In this document: positions 8,389 through 30,227 of the stretch, piece by piece
How positions within the stretch are numbered: the stretch's first letter is position 1
How the letters are laid out: the number at the start of each line of letters is the position of its first letter
Source of the DNA: Escherichia phage vB_EcoM_G5211
Reading direction: 5' to 3' (one strand)
Length of the DNA stretch: 64,000 bases
Sequence record: MK327947.1
Made by a program: the position numbers and the translations under genes
The notes under the pieces: model-generated
The model's database searches: none
What the model was told of the DNA's origin: nothing
The model's input: the letters and a program-made list of their open reading frames with translations, nothing else

Positions 8389-9891
8389 ATGCAAGATATT
8401 CATGTGCATTTTATGAATTATAGTTTTGTTAAAATTGAATGTTCTGATTCAATATCTATGGAATTACGAGACTATTTTTCTTTTGAGATTGAAGGTGCAA
8501 GATTTAATCCTCGTTATCGCTACGGGCAATGGGATGGGCGAATCCGGCTATTTACCTATGAAAACACTCTTCCTATCGGACTGATCAAAACTTTGGGTAT
8601 CTTTGCTAAGAATATGAGCTATTCTGTTTGGATTGATCCCCGTCTTCTGGAAAAGGAGAAAATCACTAAAGAAGATATTGATAGTTGGATCGGTTCGTTG
8701 GCGATATATTCTGGCGCTAATAAGATCACCCCTCATTGGTATCAAAGTGAAGCTGTATTTCAGGGTATACATAATCGTCGTAGAATGTTAGTTTTGCCTA
8801 CTTCTGCTGGTAAAAGTTTGATTGCTTGTTTATTATCTCGATGGTATCTGGAAAACTACGAGGGAAAGGTACTAATCATCGTTCCAACTACTTCTCTTGT
8901 TCTCCAGATGCGTGATGACTTTATTGATTATAGGCTATTCCCTTTTGAGGCTATCCATACAATGATGAGTGGTAGCCAAAAACATCCAGGGGAACGATTG
9001 ATAACTGTTTCAACTTGGCAATCTGCGTGTAAGATGCCTAAAGAGTGGTTCCAGCAATACGGAATGGTTATTGTCGATGAATGTCACAAAGCAACCGCCA
9101 AAAACCTTCAAAATATTGTAAATGATATGACTCATTGCCAATTTAAGATTGGTATGACTGGTTCACCTCGTGACGGTAAGTGTAATGCTTTACAATATGT
9201 TGGATTATTTGGCGATATATCTAGGATCGTAAGTATTGATCGTCTTATGGATGAAGGACAAGTTACAAAACTGAAAATTAACTGTCTATTCCTAAAATAT
9301 ACTGACGATGAATGTACGTCGATTAAGGGGAAAGAATACGCGGAAGAGATCAAATATATAACTTCACACGGTAGACGGAATAAGTTTGTGTGTAATTTGG
9401 CACTAAAACTAGCTAAGAAGGGCGAAAACGTATTCCTGATGTTCCGCAATACTAAGCACGGAAAACTTATGTATGACGCGTTACAGAAGGTACACGACAA
9501 GGTTTATTATATTGACGGTGGAGTTAAGACAGAAGAACGTGATGAATTTAAGAAATTAGCGGAAGGGGAAACAGGGATCATTTGTGTTGCTTCCTATGGT
9601 GTTTTCTCTACTGGTGTTTCAATTAAGAATTTGCACCATGTTATTTTCGGTCATCCCGTGAAGGAATCAACTATCGTTCGTCAGAGTATCGGTCGTGCAT
9701 TGCGTAAACATGGTTCTAAGGATATTGCAACGGTCTGGGATCTTATAGATCATCTGGCGGTGAAGACAAAGAGCAATAATGCTAAGAAACAGTTTAGCCA
9801 CCTTAATTATGCTCTTAAACATGCGCTTGAAAGAATAAAAATTTACAACACCGATCGATTCGAATATGTCACGAAAACAATCGAGATTTAA
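8389..9891 (+). CDS. uvsW: UvsW helicase
   Basis: From the internal ATG (MQDIHVHF..) the sequence parallels T4 UvsW with helicase motifs (LPTSAGKS, DECH); AGGTGA RBS. Confidence 0.9.
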   Translation: MQDIHVHFMNYSFVKIECSDSISMELRDYFSFEIEGARFNPRYRYGQWDGRIRLFTYENTLPIGLIKTLGIFAKNMSYSVWIDPRLLEKEKITKEDIDSWIGSLAIYSGANKITPHWYQSEAVFQGIHNRRRMLVLPTSAGKSLIACLLSRWYLENYEGKVLIIVPTTSLVLQMRDDFIDYRLFPFEAIHTMMSGSQKHPGERLITVSTWQSACKMPKEWFQQYGMVIVDECHKATAKNLQNIVNDMTHCQFKIGMTGSPRDGKCNALQYVGLFGDISRIVSIDRLMDEGQVTKLKINCLFLKYTDDECTSIKGKEYAEEIKYITSHGRRNKFVCNLALKLAKKGENVFLMFRNTKHGKLMYDALQKVHDKVYYIDGGVKTEERDEFKKLAEGETGIICVASYGVFSTGVSIKNLHHVIFGHPVKESTIVRQSIGRALRKHGSKDIATVWDLIDHLAVKTKSNNAKKQFSHLNYALKHALERIKIYNTDRFEYVTKTIEI

Positions 9892-9896
9892 TAAAT

Positions 9897-9920
9897 AGGG
9901 GCTTTAATGCCCCTTTATTC
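9897..9920 (+). terminator. intrinsic terminator after uvsW
   Basis: AGGGGC-tttaat-GCCCCT followed by TTATTCT. Confidence 0.55.
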
Positions 9921-9934
9921 TACGGAGATTAAAA

Positions 9935-10171
9935 ATGATTAGCTTTAAACGTTTTTTGGTTGAGGCCGCTATTGACGGTTTCATGCGTAAGATTTATTCT
10001 TGTAATACTATCGAGGGATTAAATGAACTTGAGGCATATTATGAGAAGCGCAAGAAAGAAACAGAATTGAAACCTGCTGATGATATTTCGATCCGTGATG
10101 CCATCGCTGGACGCCGTAAGCAATTGGAAGCGGACAACGAGCCAGAAGAGGAGCCGGAAGAGGATTTTTAA
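9935..10171 (+). CDS. uvsW.1: UvsW.1-like small acidic protein
   Basis: 78-aa ORF directly after uvsW with GGAG RBS and acidic C-terminus. Confidence 0.7.
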   Translation: MISFKRFLVEAAIDGFMRKIYSCNTIEGLNELEAYYEKRKKETELKPADDISIRDAIAGRRKQLEADNEPEEEPEEDF

Positions 10172-21612: not shown

Positions 21613-21825
21613 TTATAATGCACCATCGAGCAATTGCTCTAAGGTGTATCCTGAATAGTCTTTTTCAATCAGGATATATTTTCCTACTCGTTTAATACAA
21701 CCACGCATTTCAACGTATTCTGCGTAGTTGATGGTACGAGTTGTTCCATCTTCCAGTAATGCAGTACCGATTTCGTTAATGCGGTCATAAGTTACGTCGG
21801 TAATGATGATTTCGATGTTAGCCAT
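21613..21825 (-). CDS. small early hypothetical protein (70 aa)
   Basis: AAGGAG RBS; preceded by a promoter/stem-loop cassette. Confidence 0.6.
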   Translation of the reverse strand: MANIEIIITDVTYDRINEIGTALLEDGTTRTINYAEYVEMRGCIKRVGKYILIEKDYSGYTLEQLLDGAL

Positions 21826-21896: not shown

Positions 21897-22076
21897 TTAG
21901 AACATTTTTGAAATTAATTCTGCTTTGATTTCGCAGAGAACATCTAAAGATTTCTCGTCACCCGCTTTTGCTGCTTCTGCTTGCATTTTTGAAATGGCTT
22001 CAATGTCAGTGCAATTATAAGCCGCTTGAACTTTAGCGATTGCGATGATTGCCGATTCGATGGTTAAGTGTTTCAT
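21897..22076 (-). CDS. small early hypothetical protein (59 aa), not in the ORF track
   Basis: ATG directly follows a cassette leader; translation MKHLTIESAIIAIAKVQAAYNCTDIEAISKMQ... Confidence 0.5.
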   Translation of the reverse strand: MKHLTIESAIIAIAKVQAAYNCTDIEAISKMQAEAAKAGDEKSLDVLCEIKAELISKMF

Positions 22077-22138
22077 GTTTGATTCTCCTTTCGTTTCGGT
22101 ATGTGTGCATTATAGGGGATCTCCGACCCCCCTGTCAA
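22077..22138 (-). promoter_or_regulatory. early promoter plus stem-loop cassette (PeSL-like)
   Basis: TTGACA-18-TATAAT with GGGGATC..GACCCC stem in the spacer. Confidence 0.6.
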
Positions 22139-23949: not shown

Positions 23950-24201
23950 TCACGCTACCCCCATTGGTTTGATAGTAACAGAATCTAAAAGACCTTTGTT
24001 AGCCAGTTCGCGGCAAGTTTTCAGATCCGCAACTTCCCAGCCAGCCGCAATCAGGTTATCAATCAGGCTGTTAGCAACTTCTTCGCTCATGAAAGAGCAC
24101 TGTTTGCCGATGGTGTAGCGCACACGCTGTAATTTCAGTTTACGGAAGCCTTTAACGTTCAGGTCTTTAGCGATTTTCTTTGCGGTTTCGATGTTAGCCA
24201 T
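23950..24201 (-). CDS. small early hypothetical protein (83 aa)
   Basis: AGGAGAA RBS behind a cassette. Confidence 0.6.
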   Translation of the reverse strand: MANIETAKKIAKDLNVKGFRKLKLQRVRYTIGKQCSFMSEEVANSLIDNLIAAGWEVADLKTCRELANKGLLDSVTIKPMGVA

Positions 24202-24270
24202 TGTTTGATTCTCCTAAGTGGTATCTCGTCTTGATGGTTGTATTGTAGGGGAGTTATCCTCCCCTGTCAA
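24202..24270 (-). promoter_or_regulatory. early promoter plus stem-loop cassette (PeSL-like)
   Basis: TTGACA; stem GGGGAG-ttatc-CTCCCC in the spacer. Confidence 0.55.
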
Positions 24271-24284
24271 CACTTTTTATAAAA

Positions 24285-24452
24285 TTATTTGTTAATTTCT
24301 GGTGCGTTGCTAGGATAGTAACCTTCTTTAACTCCGAGGTATTTCGCAACCATCCCTACAATCTTCTGTGCTACTACAATGTCAAATTTCAGATAATCTT
24401 CGCCGTGGGTTTCAATGATATATGCTTCACATGCTGCTTTAGTCTCGAACAT
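24285..24452 (-). CDS. small early protein (55 aa), paralog A of 27551..27718
   Basis: MFETKAACEAYIIETHGEDYLKFDIVVAQKIVGMVAKYLGVKEGYYPSNAPEINK; nearly identical to the 27551 copy. Confidence 0.5.
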   Translation of the reverse strand: MFETKAACEAYIIETHGEDYLKFDIVVAQKIVGMVAKYLGVKEGYYPSNAPEINK

Positions 24453-24514
24453 TTTGATTCTCCTATTTCGTTTCGGTATGTGTGTAGTATAGGGGATCTC
24501 CCGATCCCCGTCAA
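24453..24514 (-). promoter_or_regulatory. early promoter plus stem-loop cassette (PeSL-like)
   Basis: TTGACG-17-TATACT with GGGGATC-tccc-GATCCCC palindrome in the spacer. Confidence 0.6.
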
Positions 24515-24528
24515 CAACTTTTTTAAAA

Positions 24529-24810
24529 TTATTCGTGATTAGTTTCGATATTGTGCATTTTGCACCAGTTCAGCCAATCGCCCAGATCTTTATAGTTGAT
24601 GCTTTTATCTGCTGCCATCGTTTTTGTCTTGATACCCATATGTGCGTTATGAGTAAGCATTTTTACAGTGAACTCAATTTTATCGCCTTTAGCTTTAACA
24701 TCAACCAGTTTGGTCCACTGGCTACCAGCGCCGCGAATGTTCATACCAACGATGTTTCCGATGTATGCTTCTTTGTTTTTCAGGATTTCGGTTGCTTTGA
24801 TGAATTTCAT
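24529..24810 (-). CDS. small early hypothetical protein (93 aa)
   Basis: ATG behind a cassette. Confidence 0.6.
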   Translation of the reverse strand: MKFIKATEILKNKEAYIGNIVGMNIRGAGSQWTKLVDVKAKGDKIEFTVKMLTHNAHMGIKTKTMAADKSINYKDLGDWLNWCKMHNIETNHE

Positions 24811-24872
24811 TTTTGATTCTCCAGTTCGTTTCGGTATGGGTGTATTATGCTATGTTCTTACTTTGGTGTCAA
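24811..24872 (-). promoter_or_regulatory. early promoter cassette (PeSL-like)
   Basis: TTGACA-17-CATAAT plus conserved leader. Confidence 0.55.
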
Positions 24873-24880
24873 CAACTTTT

Positions 24881-25150
24881 TTAGATATTTTCAGAAATAA
24901 ATTTTAAAACTTGACGTAAATGTTTCTCATCTTTGATAGTCGCCGGAAGTTCTTCTTTTACTTCCTGTGCAAGATAGATATTTCCGTTCCAAGTGAAAGA
25001 TCCGTCTTTGTTTACGCGATAGCTGAACATCCACTCGCAATCATTTTCGATTTCATATACACACAGAAGGGTGTAATCGTTAAAGCTATTGATTTCAAGG
25101 TCGAAGCCGTGACGTTTTGCAAAGTTGGTAGTGGTTTTAGTCAGTGCCAT
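24881..25150 (-). CDS. small early hypothetical protein (89 aa)
   Basis: ATG behind a cassette. Confidence 0.6.
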   Translation of the reverse strand: MALTKTTTNFAKRHGFDLEINSFNDYTLLCVYEIENDCEWMFSYRVNKDGSFTWNGNIYLAQEVKEELPATIKDEKHLRQVLKFISENI

Positions 25151-25219
25151 TGTTTGATTCTCCTAAGTGGTATCTCGTTTCGATGGGTGTATTATGCTAT
25201 AGGCTAGATCAGGTGTCAA
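25151..25219 (-). promoter_or_regulatory. early promoter cassette (PeSL-like)
   Basis: TTGACA-17-CATAAT plus conserved leader. Confidence 0.55.
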
Positions 25220-25243
25220 CAACTTTTTTAATTTTTTGGAAAT

Positions 25244-25269
25244 AAAAAAAGCCGACACTAAGGTCGGCT
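25244..25269 (-). terminator. intrinsic terminator (- strand)
   Basis: AGCCGAC-cuuagu-GUCGGCU followed by U7. Confidence 0.55.
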
Positions 25270-25276
25270 AATAAAA

Positions 25277-25585
25277 TCATTTAGACAAATAATCATTCTG
25301 TGCAATCCGGTCGGCGTATGCTGGTGTTATGTCAATCGCCAGCACTTTAACGCGTGCTTTCTTGCGACCTGTGTTTTCTCGTAACCAGTGCTCATGACCG
25401 TGAACATTTTTATACTGCGATGCTTCTTCGAAGGTACGGATCGGACCTGGATAATCTGCGTAAAGGATCTCTAGGTCTTCGGTGATGTAAAAATATACAT
25501 CATAATTACTGTTCTCTAGTTTAAGCAGAGACTTTCGGAACATTGGGAGATTTTCGCGGGTAAATTCAAAGATATTATCTTTCAT
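25277..25585 (-). CDS. small early protein (102 aa), member 1 of an H-x-H-W paralog family
   Basis: ..YFYITEDLEILYADY..HGHEHW..VKVLAIDI.. pattern shared with 26005, 26298 and 27016. Confidence 0.6.
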   Translation of the reverse strand: MKDNIFEFTRENLPMFRKSLLKLENSNYDVYFYITEDLEILYADYPGPIRTFEEASQYKNVHGHEHWLRENTGRKKARVKVLAIDITPAYADRIAQNDYLSK

Positions 25586-25607
25586 AGTATTATCCTCAAT
25601 AGTTGGA

Positions 25608-25630
25608 TGAAAAGGGGGCTTAACGCCCCC
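25608..25630 (-). terminator. hairpin GGGGGC-guuaa-GCCCCC with U-run (- strand)
   Basis: Between 25636..25923 and the RBS of 25277..25585. Confidence 0.5.
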
Positions 25631-25635
25631 ATATA

Positions 25636-25923
25636 TTAAAACAGACCTTCCTGTACACCGTAGTAGAGTTCATCGCTGATAATTTCATTAATGCGACGGT
25701 GTGCATATTCCTGATTTGCGAAGTTGTCAGCAAGTTCTACTTTAGTTTCGCCGTCATGAGTCCATTTAGTGATAACTTTACCATCTGCAAATTTGAAGTT
25801 GAACTCTTTAGCTACCGCATCGCGTACCAGACGTGCAAACTTATTGTTGCGGATTGCATTGTCGGTTTCGTGTGCAGCGTGAGCGAATTTGTTAACTTTC
25901 AGAGTGATAGTAATGTATGCCAT
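25636..25923 (-). CDS. small early hypothetical protein (95 aa)
   Basis: ATG behind a cassette. Confidence 0.6.
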   Translation of the reverse strand: MAYITITLKVNKFAHAAHETDNAIRNNKFARLVRDAVAKEFNFKFADGKVITKWTHDGETKVELADNFANQEYAHRRINEIISDELYYGVQEGLF

Positions 25924-25998
25924 AATTTGATTCTCCTAGTTAGAAAGTGTATCTCGTTTCGATGGGTGTATTATGCTATACACCCAACCTCATGTCAA
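25924..25998 (-). promoter_or_regulatory. early promoter plus stem-loop cassette (PeSL-like)
   Basis: TTGACA-17-CATAAT with GGGTGTAT..ATACACCC palindrome. Confidence 0.6.
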
Positions 25999-26004
25999 CA
26001 CTTT

Positions 26005-26283
26005 TTATAAAATAATTTTTTGATATTTTTCTATGATGTTCGTGTAATTCACATCAACCGCTAGCACCGTTGCTTCGAATCCACCGTTTAGCCAATGGCT
26101 ATGATCGTGATCGTGAAAGAAACCTAGACCAGTACGAAGACCTTCTTTATATTCGGCGCGTACATTTAGATCATCATCGATAAACAGATAAAACCATGAA
26201 TTTTTACTAGGATTGATGATACAACCTTTCAGATTCGGGAGAATATCACGACTAAGAATAAACTTATCACCTACTTTGAACAT
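26005..26283 (-). CDS. small early protein (92 aa), member 2 of the H-x-H-W paralog family
   Basis: ..FYLFIDDDLNVRAEY..HDHDHSHW..VLAVDV.. Confidence 0.6.
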   Translation of the reverse strand: MFKVGDKFILSRDILPNLKGCIINPSKNSWFYLFIDDDLNVRAEYKEGLRTGLGFFHDHDHSHWLNGGFEATVLAVDVNYTNIIEKYQKIIL

Positions 26284-26297
26284 AATATTTTCCTCAC

Positions 26298-26606
26298 TTA
26301 TAAAGTTTGACCGTTGTTTTTCGCATAATGCTTAATGCGTGCTTGATCTGCTTCCGCTGGTGATAGATTCCATGCAACCACTACAACTTCTGACGCATCG
26401 TCATCCGTTTCTGATACCCAATGGTTGTGATTCATACAGTTATTTGCTATCGAGTGAGCAAATGATTTCATCACTGGAGACGTATAATCATAGTAACGGA
26501 TTTTCAGATTTTCATCAACATACAAGTAGATCGTATAAGGTTTATATTCAGTAACCAGTAACAGACAGTTACGCAATTCTGGGAAAATCTTTTTAGTTAA
26601 TTTCAT
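26298..26606 (-). CDS. small early protein (103 aa from internal ATG), member 3 of the H-x-H-W family
   Basis: ..IYLYVDENLKIRYYDY..NHNHW..VVVVAW..; the ATG lies 1 nt from the stop of the upstream ORF. Confidence 0.6.
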   Translation of the reverse strand: MKLTKKIFPELRNCLLLVTEYKPYTIYLYVDENLKIRYYDYTSPVMKSFAHSIANNCMNHNHWVSETDDDASEVVVVAWNLSPAEADQARIKHYAKNNGQTL

Positions 26607-26607
26607 T

Positions 26608-26817
26608 TTATAATCCTCGGTCGCGGCTATAGTACACGGTACGCCATACAATTTCATGTTTCGTGTCGCTCCAGCACACGATCTCATTTACTCTTAAATC
26701 TTTGTTATCAACAAAAGATGAACATTGTGACGCTTCTTTCATCATTTTATCTGCTGTTTTCTCATCAAATACAGCACAGATTTCTTTATACACTCGATAA
26801 TCTTTAAACTTGCTCAT
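26608..26817 (-). CDS. small early protein (~70 aa), MSKFKDY paralog 1
   Basis: MSKFKDYRVYKEICAVFDEKTADKMMKEASQCSSF..; tandem paralog of 26820..27029. Confidence 0.55.
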   Translation of the reverse strand: MSKFKDYRVYKEICAVFDEKTADKMMKEASQCSSFVDNKDLRVNEIVCWSDTKHEIVWRTVYYSRDRGL

Positions 26818-26819
26818 AA

Positions 26820-27029
26820 TTAACACCAATCAAGAGTTTTTGAGAAAACCTCTATCCATTGTTGAGTATATGCGGTTTCTTTCCATGATACAATACCAGT
26901 AGAATAATGGTTTTTGTTTCCAGAAAATGACGGGCATTTTGATGCATCTTCCATCATCTTTTCGGCGAACTCTGGTTCGTATACTCGCAAGATCTGTTGA
27001 TATGCTTTATAATCTTTAAATTTGCTCAT
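26820..27029 (-). CDS. small early protein (~70 aa), MSKFKDY paralog 2
   Basis: MSKFKDYKAYQQILRVYEPEFAEKMMEDASKCPSF.. Confidence 0.55.
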   Translation of the reverse strand: MSKFKDYKAYQQILRVYEPEFAEKMMEDASKCPSFSGNKNHYSTGIVSWKETAYTQQWIEVFSKTLDWC

Positions 27030-27294
27030 AATCATTCACTACCTTATCAGCTTCTTTTGTTGTTTTTACATCAACTGCGATAACCCGTAAAGGTTCGTCA
27101 TGGTTCCACCAATGATCGTGAATATCGGCTTGTGATTTATCACCAAAGGAATCACGAATATCATTTTTACTTTTATAGCTAATGTGACCGTCATAGTCAA
27201 CATAAAGGTAATTATCGAAAATCGGCGTTTTTAAGATCATGCCGAAAAATCTTTCTTTGTGTGTCTTATCCAGCGTTGCAGTAATTCGCATCAT
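27016..27294 (-). CDS. small early protein (92 aa), member 4 of the H-x-H-W paralog family
   Basis: ..YLYVDYDGHISY..HDHWW..VIAVDV.. Confidence 0.6.
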   Translation of the reverse strand: MMRITATLDKTHKERFFGMILKTPIFDNYLYVDYDGHISYKSKNDIRDSFGDKSQADIHDHWWNHDEPLRVIAVDVKTTKEADKVVNDYEQI

Positions 27295-27306
27295 AATATA
27301 TTCCTC

Positions 27307-27486
27307 TTAGAAAGGGATGGTCATTTCTTGAGCTTGTACATTCTCGTTAGGATTAAACTTCATCCAACCAATATTGTCTACCAGCATATGCACATTTTTA
27401 TCATATCCTACGTGAGTAGTCAACACTAAATGTGATTTACCTTCAACGATGATTTCCATGTACTTCTGAACTTCGATAGCTTTCAT
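27307..27486 (-). CDS. small early hypothetical protein (59 aa), not in the ORF track
   Basis: ATG directly after a cassette leader; translation MKAIEVQKYMEIIVEGKSHLVLTTHVGYDKNVHMLVDNIGWMKFNPNENVQAQEMTIPF. Confidence 0.5.
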   Translation of the reverse strand: MKAIEVQKYMEIIVEGKSHLVLTTHVGYDKNVHMLVDNIGWMKFNPNENVQAQEMTIPF

Positions 27487-27547
27487 TTTGATTCTCCGTT
27501 TGTTGTCTTGATGGGAGTATCTTACTACTCCCTTTAATCATTGTCAA
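27487..27547 (-). promoter_or_regulatory. early promoter plus stem-loop cassette (PeSL-like)
   Basis: TTGACA; stem GGGAGTA-tcttac-TACTCCC. Confidence 0.55.
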
Positions 27548-27550
27548 CTA

Positions 27551-27718
27551 TTATTTGTTAATTTCTGGTGCGTTGCTTGGATAGTAACCTTCTTTAACAC
27601 CCAGATATTTTGCAACCATTCCGGTGATCTTCTGTGCTACTACGATATCGAATTTCAGGTAGTCTTCACCGTGTTTTGCTACAATGTATGCTTCGCATTC
27701 TGCTTTAGTCTGGAACAT
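27551..27718 (-). CDS. small early protein (55 aa), paralog B of 24285..24452
   Basis: MFQTKAECEAYIVAKHGEDYLKFDIVVAQKITGMVAKYLGVKEGYYPSNAPEINK. Confidence 0.5.
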   Translation of the reverse strand: MFQTKAECEAYIVAKHGEDYLKFDIVVAQKITGMVAKYLGVKEGYYPSNAPEINK

Positions 27719-27782
27719 TTTTGATTCTCCTATATCTCGTTGGTATGTGTGTATTATAGGGGATCTCCCGATCCCCTGTCAA
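27719..27782 (-). promoter_or_regulatory. early promoter plus stem-loop cassette (PeSL-like)
   Basis: TTGACA-18-TATAAT with GGGGATC-tccc-GATCCCC palindrome. Confidence 0.6.
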
Positions 27783-27795
27783 CAACTTTTTTGAA

Positions 27796-28272
27796 TTATT
27801 TTTCTTGATGCTCGCGCTCGTACTTTTCGAAATAAAATTCTACTGGCTGGTCATGAATTGACAGCAAGCCAAAGCGTTTAGCCGCTCGCAATCCCATATT
27901 GCGCTGAATGTACTTCTGGAAGTTCTCGCGTATACACTTACGCCAGTATTCTAAGCCCATACAGCTTTTATAAAGATTGCATTGTACACACGCCGGATTC
28001 ATGTTATCAAGTATATCATGTTCCGGTTTATGCATTCCTACAACCTTATACTTCCACGACCCATCATCATTACGGGCAATTCGTCCATTTTCATCATAGA
28101 CTACCTTTGAGCGTCGCAATACTGGTTTGATATGGTCTGCGTGCCAGCGATCCCCTAGTTCCTCGCCACAATAGGCACAACGCCCACCGTATTTCATTTT
28201 CAGGATCTGGCGTTGCTCTTTCTTTGACAATTTTTTAGGTTTAGGGGCTTTCGCCCCTTCATTATCACACAT
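27796..28272 (-). CDS. HNH endonuclease (free-standing, abutting the DNA ligase gene)
   Basis: CAYCGEEL..WHADHIKP..NMNPACVQCN matches the HNH Cys/His pattern; start overlaps the 3' end of gene 30. Confidence 0.75.
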   Translation of the reverse strand: MCDNEGAKAPKPKKLSKKEQRQILKMKYGGRCAYCGEELGDRWHADHIKPVLRRSKVVYDENGRIARNDDGSWKYKVVGMHKPEHDILDNMNPACVQCNLYKSCMGLEYWRKCIRENFQKYIQRNMGLRAAKRFGLLSIHDQPVEFYFEKYEREHQEK

Positions 28273-29761
28273 CGAATACCTCTTTTACTGTATTTGCCGT
28301 GGTCTTGTCGTAGCGAATACGTTTGATGATTGGGAGAAATAAAGAGAACTCCGGTTCATCTTCTTTACGTGATTTGCTGCGGATATACCCGTTGCATGTC
28401 ATCTCAATGACTTTTCCAATCAGGTTATGACGGTCAGCCCATAACATTTCTCGGTCGAGTTCATTTCGACGATCGAACGGAATTACACGTTCGATACCAT
28501 CATCACCTTTTTCGGTTGTGGTGTCGGTTAATCCCGATCCGGTGTTAGTCATCATTCGTCCGCACGCACTACGGACAGTAAAACCGCCTACCTTATTGGG
28601 GTCTTTACTATGCGGATATACATCAACAATTTCCGCGTCGAAGTCAATAACTTCTTTAAATTTAACCTGATCTTTACTGCGACGATCTTCAAATACACCA
28701 TGTAAATTTTTAAGGATAATACCTTCTAAGCCCATGTTTACATAGCGATGATATACTTCGCGAGCTTCATCGATATTGTTAACTACAGTGTTTTCGATTA
28801 TCTGAACACGAGGATCGTTAAGTTCTTCAACAATCTGTTTTAGTTCTTCGAATCGATCTTTATATTGCTTCGTTGCTTTCTCGTTTCCGTAATACACATC
28901 ACGGTCGATAACATCCCAGACAGTGTAAACAATACATTGGGCTTCTTCTTTTGGAATAGTTCCTTTCAGTGATTTGTTGAGGATACCATTTCCGGTCTGA
29001 CGATCTGCAACAACGGATTCTTTCACTGCTTCCGCTACTGGCGTTAATGGCATTTCATCTTCTTCAAATATCCATGACAGAGTACCATCATAAACGCTCT
29101 CAACGAAGTTCTGCGCTGGTGTTTGCGAAAGGGTAGGCATATATACCAATTCGCCATCTAGAACAATTCCACGGCCTCGTAGACGCTCTAAAACCACAAA
29201 CAAATCATCAAGCCCTTGATAGGTATTACCTGAACGGGTATAGATTGCTAATGTTTCCCCGTCAATATCAGCCATCCCACGAGCGCCATCGCTTTTAAGT
29301 TGTGCATACGCCGGATATTTGATATTGGCAATGGTCTTATCAGAACATGACGATGCAAGGTGGCACGGCTGCTGAGGAATCAGTTTCTTCCATACCTTGT
29401 TTGCGGTGGTAGCGGAACAACCGCATTCTAGGTCTCGATTCAGGACCATCATTGCAACTTTAGCATCGTCTTCCGACAAGCAAGTCAGAGTATCGGTAAC
29501 TAGCTGTAATGCTGCATTACCAGTTATTTGACGCGTGGCAAGTTTATTTTTAAAGACCTGTAATGCGCCAGATAAAGACAATACAGATGAATAACGCGAC
29601 GGTTTATCGTATTTCTTTACGCCAAACGTAACCTGTTTGCAATATGCCAGATAAAAGCATTCTTTCAGCGTTTCATTGCTTGCAGATTCTTTCAGGATCT
29701 TTTCTTTCAGCGATGTTTTGTCTGTTGCTGCAAGCTGATTAATGATATTAAGAATTGACAT
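28265..29761 (-). CDS. 30: ATP-dependent DNA ligase gp30
   Basis: From the internal ATG (MSILNIINQ..); KSDGAR adenylation motif region and overall parallel to T4 ligase; the track ORF starts at GTG 29767. Confidence 0.9.
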   Translation of the reverse strand: MSILNIINQLAATDKTSLKEKILKESASNETLKECFYLAYCKQVTFGVKKYDKPSRYSSVLSLSGALQVFKNKLATRQITGNAALQLVTDTLTCLSEDDAKVAMMVLNRDLECGCSATTANKVWKKLIPQQPCHLASSCSDKTIANIKYPAYAQLKSDGARGMADIDGETLAIYTRSGNTYQGLDDLFVVLERLRGRGIVLDGELVYMPTLSQTPAQNFVESVYDGTLSWIFEEDEMPLTPVAEAVKESVVADRQTGNGILNKSLKGTIPKEEAQCIVYTVWDVIDRDVYYGNEKATKQYKDRFEELKQIVEELNDPRVQIIENTVVNNIDEAREVYHRYVNMGLEGIILKNLHGVFEDRRSKDQVKFKEVIDFDAEIVDVYPHSKDPNKVGGFTVRSACGRMMTNTGSGLTDTTTEKGDDGIERVIPFDRRNELDREMLWADRHNLIGKVIEMTCNGYIRSKSRKEDEPEFSLFLPIIKRIRYDKTTANTVKEVFDV

Positions 29762-30227
29762 TTTCACCTCGTTTTGTTAAACGTTCACGAATATCATTGA
29801 GGATACTACAAAATTCCGATTCAGTCAATATAGTCTTTAACGGATCAGTTCCACCTATGCTATGACGTAATTTCTTATTTCCGGTAGCGAGTAATGCTTT
29901 ACAAAATTCTGGGTTATTCCGTGCCATCGTAACAAATGCCAGATGTACCAGTCTGTAATAATGCTCACTCATTCGATGAATAGGGCGACCCTGAAAATAT
30001 AACATGTGATTCTCAATCTTTTCAGTTCTTCCGGTTCTTTTTGCTTTGCCACCGTGCATCAAAAAGATTTCTCTTTGTCTCTGAGGGTTCTTAAATCTTA
30101 GCCCCTGTAAAAATCCTTCTGTGCTGTTAATATCGCAACCAAATAGACGGAATGGTCTTTTATTGAAATTGCTCAATTCACCCGATGGATAAGGTCCACC
30201 CGCATAGATATCAATTTCAGAAGTCAT
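29748..30227 (-). CDS. NADAR/YbiA-like (DUF1768) protein
   Basis: PSGELSNFNKRPF..EGFLQGLRF and ALLATGNKKL resemble the NADAR family signature. Confidence 0.6.
   Translation of the reverse strand: MTSEIDIYAGGPYPSGELSNFNKRPFRLFGCDINSTEGFLQGLRFKNPQRQREIFLMHGGKAKRTGRTEKIENHMLYFQGRPIHRMSEHYYRLVHLAFVTMARNNPEFCKALLATGNKKLRHSIGGTDPLKTILTESEFCSILNDIRERLTKRGENVNS

Follow-up and report, generated by a model that had tools for sequence, protein, structure and literature searches.

Promoter-early stem-loops (PeSLs) were described in phages RB49 and Phi1 (Arbiol et al., 2010; PMC2839356), with an extension by Comeau et al. (2014; PMC4122927). Each consists of a strong sigma-70 promoter and a stem-loop, and they are concentrated in hyperplastic regions, where they mediate insertion, deletion and replacement of ORFan open reading frames (ORFs) and also give mini-circles (PMC2839356, PMC4122927). 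One RB49 mini-circle (band H) was sequenced and carries ORFans 191-194; PeSL mini-circles were put forward as vectors of horizontal transfer, and no dedicated integrase was identified in RB49 or Phi1 (PMC2839356). A lacZ fusion of PeSL206/205 gave ~13,000 Miller units, and terminator activity was demonstrated for the PeSL211/210 stem-loop only (PMC2839356). Here we analyzed 64,000 nucleotides of Escherichia phage vB_EcoM_G5211 (MK327947.1), referred to as the window, in which two nearly identical 55-residue ORFs each follow a promoter cassette with the same hairpin. The two units are likely old paralogous PeSL-ORFan cassettes that were duplicated once, have been kept by selection and are still recombining.

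The best matches of the window were Krischvirus phages (RB49, Phi1, JSE, GEC-3S and others) at 94-97%, and by these matches its source is a Krischvirus, an RB49/Phi1-like T4-type coliphage. Situated between alt and gene 30 (ligase), this hyperplastic region is packed with hypothetical ORFs. The repeated elements that the initial annotation called cassettes are, by their sequence anatomy, PeSLs: all features of the definition that can be read from sequence (AT-rich tract, sigma-70 boxes, stem-loop, Shine-Dalgarno (SD) sequence with small ORFan, and recombination site) were found at both loci. The system itself is already known, and the duplication illustrates its described shuffling mechanism. 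Paralogous cassettes, gene conversion and deletions between duplicated cassettes are mentioned in neither PeSL paper (PMC2839356, PMC4122927); paralogy, conversion tracts and deletions by crossover between the two copies are modest new details on a known system, as are the clean loss of the ORF191 cassette in some relatives and the scatter of natural crossovers over the PeSL.

Results

Two copies of a single-ORF unit

The two ORFs, referred to as copies A and B, are as follows.

24285..24452, minus strand: copy A, 55-residue ORF from the ORF list, ortholog of RB49/Phi1 ORF191 by position and sequence (RB49p191, phi1p191)
27551..27718, minus strand: copy B, 55-residue ORF from the ORF list, ortholog of RB49/Phi1 ORF205

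The two proteins are identical at 49 of 55 residues (89%), above the approximately 45 of 55 given in the initial annotation, and the six differences cluster at residues 3, 7, 13-15, and 32. The ORFs share 84.5% nucleotide identity, with 26 differences in 168 nt that fall mostly at third codon positions. Alignment of the whole units, promoter cassette plus ORF (24285-24520 and 27551-27788), gave 85.7% identity over 236/238 nt, and the homology extends from the AT-rich/-35 region through the stop codon and ends there. The start codon of each copy is preceded at 39-40 nt by the 18-mer GGGGATCTCCCGATCCCC, which matches at 18 of 18 positions and occurs exactly twice in the window (24492-24509 and 27759-27776; chance expectation 0.01). 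That both ORFs sit behind the same cassette variant in this genome was thus borne out. The two cassettes were also the most similar of the 253 cassette pairs in the window (0.908 vs. a median of 0.62), although the cassette of the unrelated ORF186 comes close (0.874 to that of copy B and 0.859 to that of copy A). The two copies are the closest paralogous pair of the region, other pairs being 27-44% identical in protein sequence, and no third, degenerate or pseudogene copy was present in the window.

The genes flanking copy A are not paralogous to those flanking copy B, which rules out a segmental duplication and shows that the duplicated unit is a single ORF; promoter cassettes lie on both sides of it. 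The best database match of copy B was identical at 54 of 55 residues. The Lys at residue 15 (codon 27674-27676) is so far unique to the window; in the remaining B copies examined this position is Asn or Thr.

Age of the duplication and selection on the copies

The initial annotation took the duplication to be recent, which the sequence divergence and the distribution of the copies contradict. Nei-Gojobori analysis of copy A against copy B gave a proportion of synonymous differences (pS) of 0.55, a synonymous divergence (dS) of ~0.99, to be read as a rough lower bound only, a nonsynonymous divergence (dN) of 0.059 and a dN/dS of 0.06. Synonymous sites are close to saturation, and the low dN/dS indicates that both copies are functional genes under purifying selection. 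Both copies were detected by tblastn in 51 of 58 Krischvirus records, and three copies in none, so that possession of two copies is shared among the related phages.

Copies were typed at 26 diagnostic ORF sites and by hairpin in 15 genomes. The 11 A-site and 13 B-site copies were reciprocally monophyletic, copies of the same clade differing by a median of 3-4 nt and those of different clades by 24 nt, and the outgroups (the metagenomic contig L016 and siphovirus swi2) fell outside both. High dS, the presence of both copies across the genus and the separation of the two clades together argue that the duplication predates the radiation of the sampled genus.

Anatomy of the promoter cassettes

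The cassettes that border the two units, and two further PeSLs with the same type of hairpin, are listed below.

24453..24528, minus strand: PeSL193/191, the cassette of copy A, located by sequence and promoter scan; contains the ORF193 stop codon and an AT-rich tract
24514..24509, 24491..24486, and 24464..24460, minus strand: -35 box TTGACG, -10 box TATACT (17-nt spacer between the boxes), and SD sequence AGGAG of PeSL193/191
24492..24509: hairpin GGGGATC-GGGA-GATCCCC of PeSL193/191
27719..27795, minus strand: chimeric PeSL before copy B, located by promoter scan; AT-rich tract after the stop codon of the HNH gene and a B-type 5' untranslated region (5'UTR)
27782..27777, 27758..27753, and 27731..27727, minus strand: -35 box TTGACA, -10 box TATAAT, and SD sequence AGGAG of the copy B PeSL
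27759..27776: 18-nt spacer of the copy B PeSL, which is the hairpin GGGGATC-GGGA-GATCCCC
24202..24284, minus strand: PeSL191/190, downstream edge of unit A, with a different hairpin, GGGGAG-GATAA-CTCCCC
27487..27550, minus strand: PeSL205/204, downstream edge of unit B; -35 box TTGACA at 27547..27542, stem-loop GGGAGTA...TACTCCC overlapping the -10 box TAAGAT
22074..22138, minus strand: PeSL before the unrelated ORF186, same hairpin subfamily, GGGGGGTCGGAGATCCCC, by blastn and pairwise identity
63172..63234, minus strand: one more PeSL in this hairpin subfamily, GGGGATC-GGC-GATCCCC, upstream of an unrelated ORF

The promoter scan matched 10 of 12 consensus positions for copy A, with a 17-nt spacer, and all 12 for copy B, with an 18-nt spacer; both spacers fall in the 16-18 nt range of the PeSL definition. 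The AT-rich tracts are TAATTTTAAAAAAGTTG after the ORF193 stop codon and TAATTCAAAAAAGTTG after that of the HNH gene. The shared hairpin, which occupies the promoter spacer, has a 7-bp stem and a predicted free energy (dG) of -12.5 kcal/mol, and at both loci AGGAG is followed after 7-8 nt by ATG. The two GATC (Dam) sites of the hairpin were considered as a possible signal and set aside, GATC not being enriched in the window (347 observed vs. 332 expected from second-order composition). Canonical intrinsic terminators, with a GC stem and a T-run, are present elsewhere in the region at 25250-25269 and 25614-25630 (minus strand), where they flank ORF197 (25277-25585), one following ORF198 and the other ORF197; they contrast with the PeSL hairpins, which have no T-runs.

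Hairpin variants and ORF history

Similarity of cassettes did not track the relationship of the ORFs that follow them. At the A site, the GGGA loop was found in all nine intact relatives and in three empty-site chimeras. At the B site, the loop was GGT in four genomes and ACC in six, which together make up 10 of 13, and GGGA was confined to the window, E26, and FL15. In the records of RB49 and Phi1, PeSL206/205 differs from its counterpart in the window by a loop of GGT or ACC and a spacer of 17 nt. ORFs 186, 191, 205, 209, and 210, and in some genomes also 185, all follow a GGGGATC-loop-GATCCCC module, which makes at least six ORFs without relationship to one another apart from the two copies, and the 18-mer itself recurs in Phi1 before ORF209, again an unrelated gene. 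Even at a single orthologous site the loop varied among close relatives (GGT, ACC, GGGA, ATC, and ACGTA). Other spacer types were stable; that before ORF193 was unchanged in 12 of 13 genomes and that before ORF204, in PeSL205/204, in 11 of 12. The cassette of ORF186, with its high identity to those of both copies, served as a control, and the 5'UTR of copy A is nearer to that of the ORF186 cassette than to that of copy B.

Because the loops vary by site and the hairpin is common to unrelated ORFs, sub-parts of PeSLs must be exchanged without regard to the ORFs, and promoter cassette and ORF have had separate histories. At a dS close to 1, the perfect match of the two 18-mers is not a relic of the original duplication but a secondary homogenization. 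The shared cassette variant had been offered as direct evidence of duplication by cassettes, a claim that the different loop before copy B in most relatives and the occurrence of the same hairpin class before unrelated ORFs leave unsupported. The broader proposal of cassette-mediated duplication holds in part, in that a paralogous single-ORF unit between cassettes fits PeSL-mediated recombination.

The loops GGT and ACC are reverse complements of each other, and close relatives can have either one at a given orthologous PeSL (before ORF205, ORF209, ORF210, and ORF186), which suggests either small inversions that flip the hairpin or very frequent swapping of PeSLs. In Phi1, MIZ4, JK32, Brandy, and UPWr_E1 the loop orientation is opposite between the ORF205 PeSL and the HNH-proximal PeSL. 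Similarity between otherwise unrelated genes was also seen at their starts: ORF185 (21613-21825, minus strand) and ORF190 (23950-24201, minus strand) both begin with MANIE, and the first 16 nt, ATGGCTAACATCGAAA, are alike in the ORF185 of MIZ4 and the ORF190 of the window. This shared start may be PeSL-type homology that reaches into the first codons, or a recombination scar.

A chimeric cassette before copy B

The window lacks ORF206-210, so that ORF205 directly follows the genes for an HNH endonuclease (27796..28272) and DNA ligase (28265..29767). The AT-rich part of the copy B PeSL matches the HNH-proximal PeSL of relatives, and from TTGACA onward the sequence is that of PeSL206/205 of E26. 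The PeSL before ORF205 in the window is, by this comparison, a new chimera, in which an upstream part of the HNH-proximal type is combined with an 18-nt spacer and its GGGA loop. Its exact junction of HNH gene, PeSL and ORF205 had no match among phage records or IMG/VR contigs. Phage phiS has the same gene order and retains the 5'UTR of the other PeSL up to the ATG; its crossover point differs, which indicates that ORF206-210 were deleted there independently and that the deletion has at least two origins.

Exchange between the copies and loss of units among relatives

Conversion tracts between the copies were found at several positions in the typed genomes. The B copies of Brandy and PTE-Eco09 have A-type states at ORF nt 45-75, the A copies of kaaroe, Cognac, and phiS have B-type 3' ends, and the A copy of PTE-Eco09 has a B-type -10 box, 5'UTR and first ~24 nt. 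A 3' conversion tract within the window's own pair was considered and rejected, the longest identical run being 27 nt and not significant (permutation P = 0.12); the evidence for conversion comes from comparing genomes.

Crossovers between the two copies have removed the block that separates them.

24529..27486, minus strand: block between the copies, with 11 small ORFs (ORF193-204), deleted in Cognac and FL04 as judged by gene order and junction typing

In Cognac, the gene upstream of copy B and the B PeSL (GGT loop, B-type 5'UTR) are followed by an A-type ORF and then by the A neighbor ORF190, which places the crossover in the SD region. FL04 has the upstream context and -35 box of B and then an A-type 5'UTR and ORF, with the crossover between the -35 box and the early 5'UTR. 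The two phages have thus lost ~3.3 kb with ORF193-204 by two independent crossovers between A and B. The paper on Cognac and Brandy (PMC9569957) does not discuss these deletions. Both phages are viable isolates, which shows that growth requires neither ORF193-204 nor more than one of the two copies.

Loss of copy A alone was found in UPWr_E1, Brandy, and JK32, which have a single 84-nt chimeric PeSL between ORF193 and ORF190. The front half of PeSL193/191 is joined in this chimera, at ...ACACACAT|CAAGACGAG..., to the 5'UTR and SD sequence of PeSL191/190 by a crossover between the -10 box and the SD sequence. Such an empty site is the expected reciprocal product of a mini-circle carrying only ORF191. 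In MIZ4 (9405-9978), ORF186-191, including the DNA methyltransferase ORF189, are absent, and a chimeric PeSL with a GGT hairpin forms the junction between ORF193 and ORF185. The natural crossover points are scattered over the whole PeSL of ~70 nt, which favors general homologous recombination on short patches of homology over a site-specific recombinase.

Other paralogs were observed within the block. Four ORFs on the minus strand (25277-25585, 26005-26283, 26298-26687, and 27016-27294; ORF197, ORF199, ORF200, and ORF203 of RB49) are distant paralogs with 27-34% identity that share a His-x-His-Trp-like motif; the family, to which ORF206/208 are also related, suggests that this region underwent earlier rounds of duplication. 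ORF201 and ORF202 (26608-26817 and 26820-27035, minus strand) are tandem paralogs with 44% identity that both start with MSKFKDY... and are adjacent with no PeSL between them.

The 55-residue protein and its homologs

The 55-residue protein belongs to PHROG 8009, a family of unknown function (copy A, E = 7e-38), and had no match in Pfam. A search of 5.8 billion proteins returned only four clusters, so the family is very narrow. The AlphaFold2 model, which is of low confidence (predicted local distance difference test (pLDDT) score 67.7; predicted template modeling (pTM) score 0.37), has a two-helix hairpin and a disordered C-terminal tail. As a best guess, it may serve as a small accessory protein expressed early.

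Homologs with 44-72% identity are encoded by the small E. coli and Salmonella siphoviruses swi2, SeSz-2, Pu29, Sasha, and PDP46. The association of the ORF with a PeSL is not seen outside Krischvirus; the swi2 gene (2501-2656) has a plain sigma-70-like promoter and no G/C hairpin. This distribution indicates that the ORF has spread horizontally without its PeSL. One database protein, P0004 (77 residues, from a 1.7-kb contig), is a copy B variant with a 12-residue N-terminal extension and 25 unrelated C-terminal residues after ...AKYLG, and is probably a frameshift, a recombinant or an assembly artifact.

Discussion

Origin of the duplicated unit

The reading that we consider likely is that a single-ORF unit was duplicated once, before the sampled genus radiated. 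The original route would most likely have been homologous recombination in the conserved PeSLs, by excision of a mini-circle and its re-insertion at another PeSL or by unequal crossover. Strong purifying selection has since maintained the two copies, presumably as early-expressed genes, and each has a sigma-70-type promoter of its own with a spacer predicted to fold into a G/C stem-loop. As two direct repeats of ~236 bp, the units continue to interact, giving short conversion tracts and occasional crossovers that delete the ~3.3 kb between them, and the parts of the PeSLs (AT-rich tract, loop, and 5'UTR) are exchanged among many PeSLs independently of the ORFs. The hairpin identity in the window, which among the relatives examined is seen only in E26 and FL15, then reflects secondary homogenization, and in this genome a crossover between PeSLs has in addition removed ORF206-210.

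Several points weigh against this account of one old duplication with continuing exchange. Mini-circle re-insertion and unequal crossover are indistinguishable because the PeSLs have since been overwritten, and the upstream end of the original unit is undefined, the PeSLs being all alike and repeatedly overwritten. Gene conversion blurs the dating. The typing covered 15 of ~58 available genomes, and outgroup sampling is thin, with the four protein clusters and a few siphovirus homologs. The intrinsic terminator scan did not call the PeSL hairpins, which have UAUA(A/C)U in place of a U-run 3' of the stem. A role of the hairpin as a classical intrinsic terminator is accordingly unsupported by the scan and is taken from one published PeSL.

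The two copies could instead be xenologs, acquired independently from related donor phages and inserted at two PeSLs, which we regard as unlikely. The proposed role of PeSL mini-circles as horizontal-transfer vectors (PMC2839356) and the homologs in unrelated siphoviruses (swi2, SeSz-2, and Pu29) would fit such a history, and the high dS is compatible with divergence elsewhere before arrival. However, each copy has the other as its closest relative, with 84.5% nucleotide identity vs. 72-76% to L016, the nearest outside homolog, and 65-67% to swi2. The search of 5.8 billion proteins gave no donor lineage nearer to one copy than to its paralog, and outside Krischvirus the ORF is not tied to a PeSL.

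Two additions to the account of old, recombining paralogs are similarly doubtful. One is that the GGGGATC-loop-GATCCCC hairpins are active hot spots of recombination rather than passive homology, an idea prompted by loops that flip and are swapped between PeSLs at a rate well above that of change in other promoter spacers; conversion and crossover could be directed to the cassettes if cruciforms were extruded there and cleaved, by the phage Holliday-junction resolvase for instance. The other, separate from the first, is that the paralogs are kept by diverged specificity, which the six clustered amino-acid differences might reflect.

It is slightly less probable again that the pair is very ancient and has been continually homogenized by conversion, so that 89% identity would greatly understate its age. 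At least four distinct conversion tracts among the 15 genomes speak for such concerted evolution, as does the lower divergence of the 3' third of the ORF (pS 0.36 vs. 0.64), but the 5'/3' contrast is not significant (permutation P = 0.12) and the A and B clades are cleanly apart at 20 or more diagnostic sites in most genomes. Since the clades remain separated at so many sites, conversion is patchy rather than homogenizing, and concerted evolution refines the account of an old, single duplication rather than replacing it.

A recent, lineage-specific copying of promoter cassette and ORF as one piece in this phage would explain the identical 18-mer, the first-ranking cassette pair and the 89% identical proteins, the closest pair of the region, but is extremely improbable given the 26 mostly synonymous differences with dS ~0.99, the two copies in 51 of 58 records with separate clades across 15 genomes, the different loop before copy B in most relatives and the same 18-mer before the unrelated ORF209 in Phi1.

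Comparison with known systems

The locus lends natural-population support to a mechanism shown experimentally in two phages only, in that PeSL cassettes have been duplicated, cleanly lost, converted and used as end-points of deletions. The scatter of crossover points bears on the choice between general and site-specific recombination, a question left open by the 2010 paper (PMC2839356). Beyond these points the pair is an ordinary feature of a well-described system.

The closest parallel is the PeSL-ORFan cassettes of RB49 and Phi1, which belong to the same genus and hyperplastic region and have the same anatomy as those of the window (AT-rich tract, -35 and -10 boxes, GGGG...CCCC stem-loop, SD sequence, and ORFan). 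The cassette of copy B is the ortholog of the assayed PeSL206/205, and copy A lies within the published ORF191-194 mini-circle. The sub-regions that contain the natural crossovers (AT-rich/-35, -10 to SD, and SD to ATG) are also those in which the published mini-circles were joined.

Integron arrays, an analogy made by the PeSL authors (PMC2839356), resemble PeSL cassettes in consisting of small, individually mobile ORF cassettes with circular intermediates. In contrast, every PeSL cassette is equipped with a promoter, no attC/attI site is known and no integrase was identified in RB49 or Phi1 (PMC2839356), no search aimed at one having been made in the window. The scatter of PeSL crossover points speaks against a site-specific process. 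Phage morons (Hendrix et al., 2000) are likewise single accessory genes with their own promoter and stem-loop, inserted between other genes. They are thought to move by illegitimate recombination, whereas the regulatory sequences of PeSLs themselves supply the homology.

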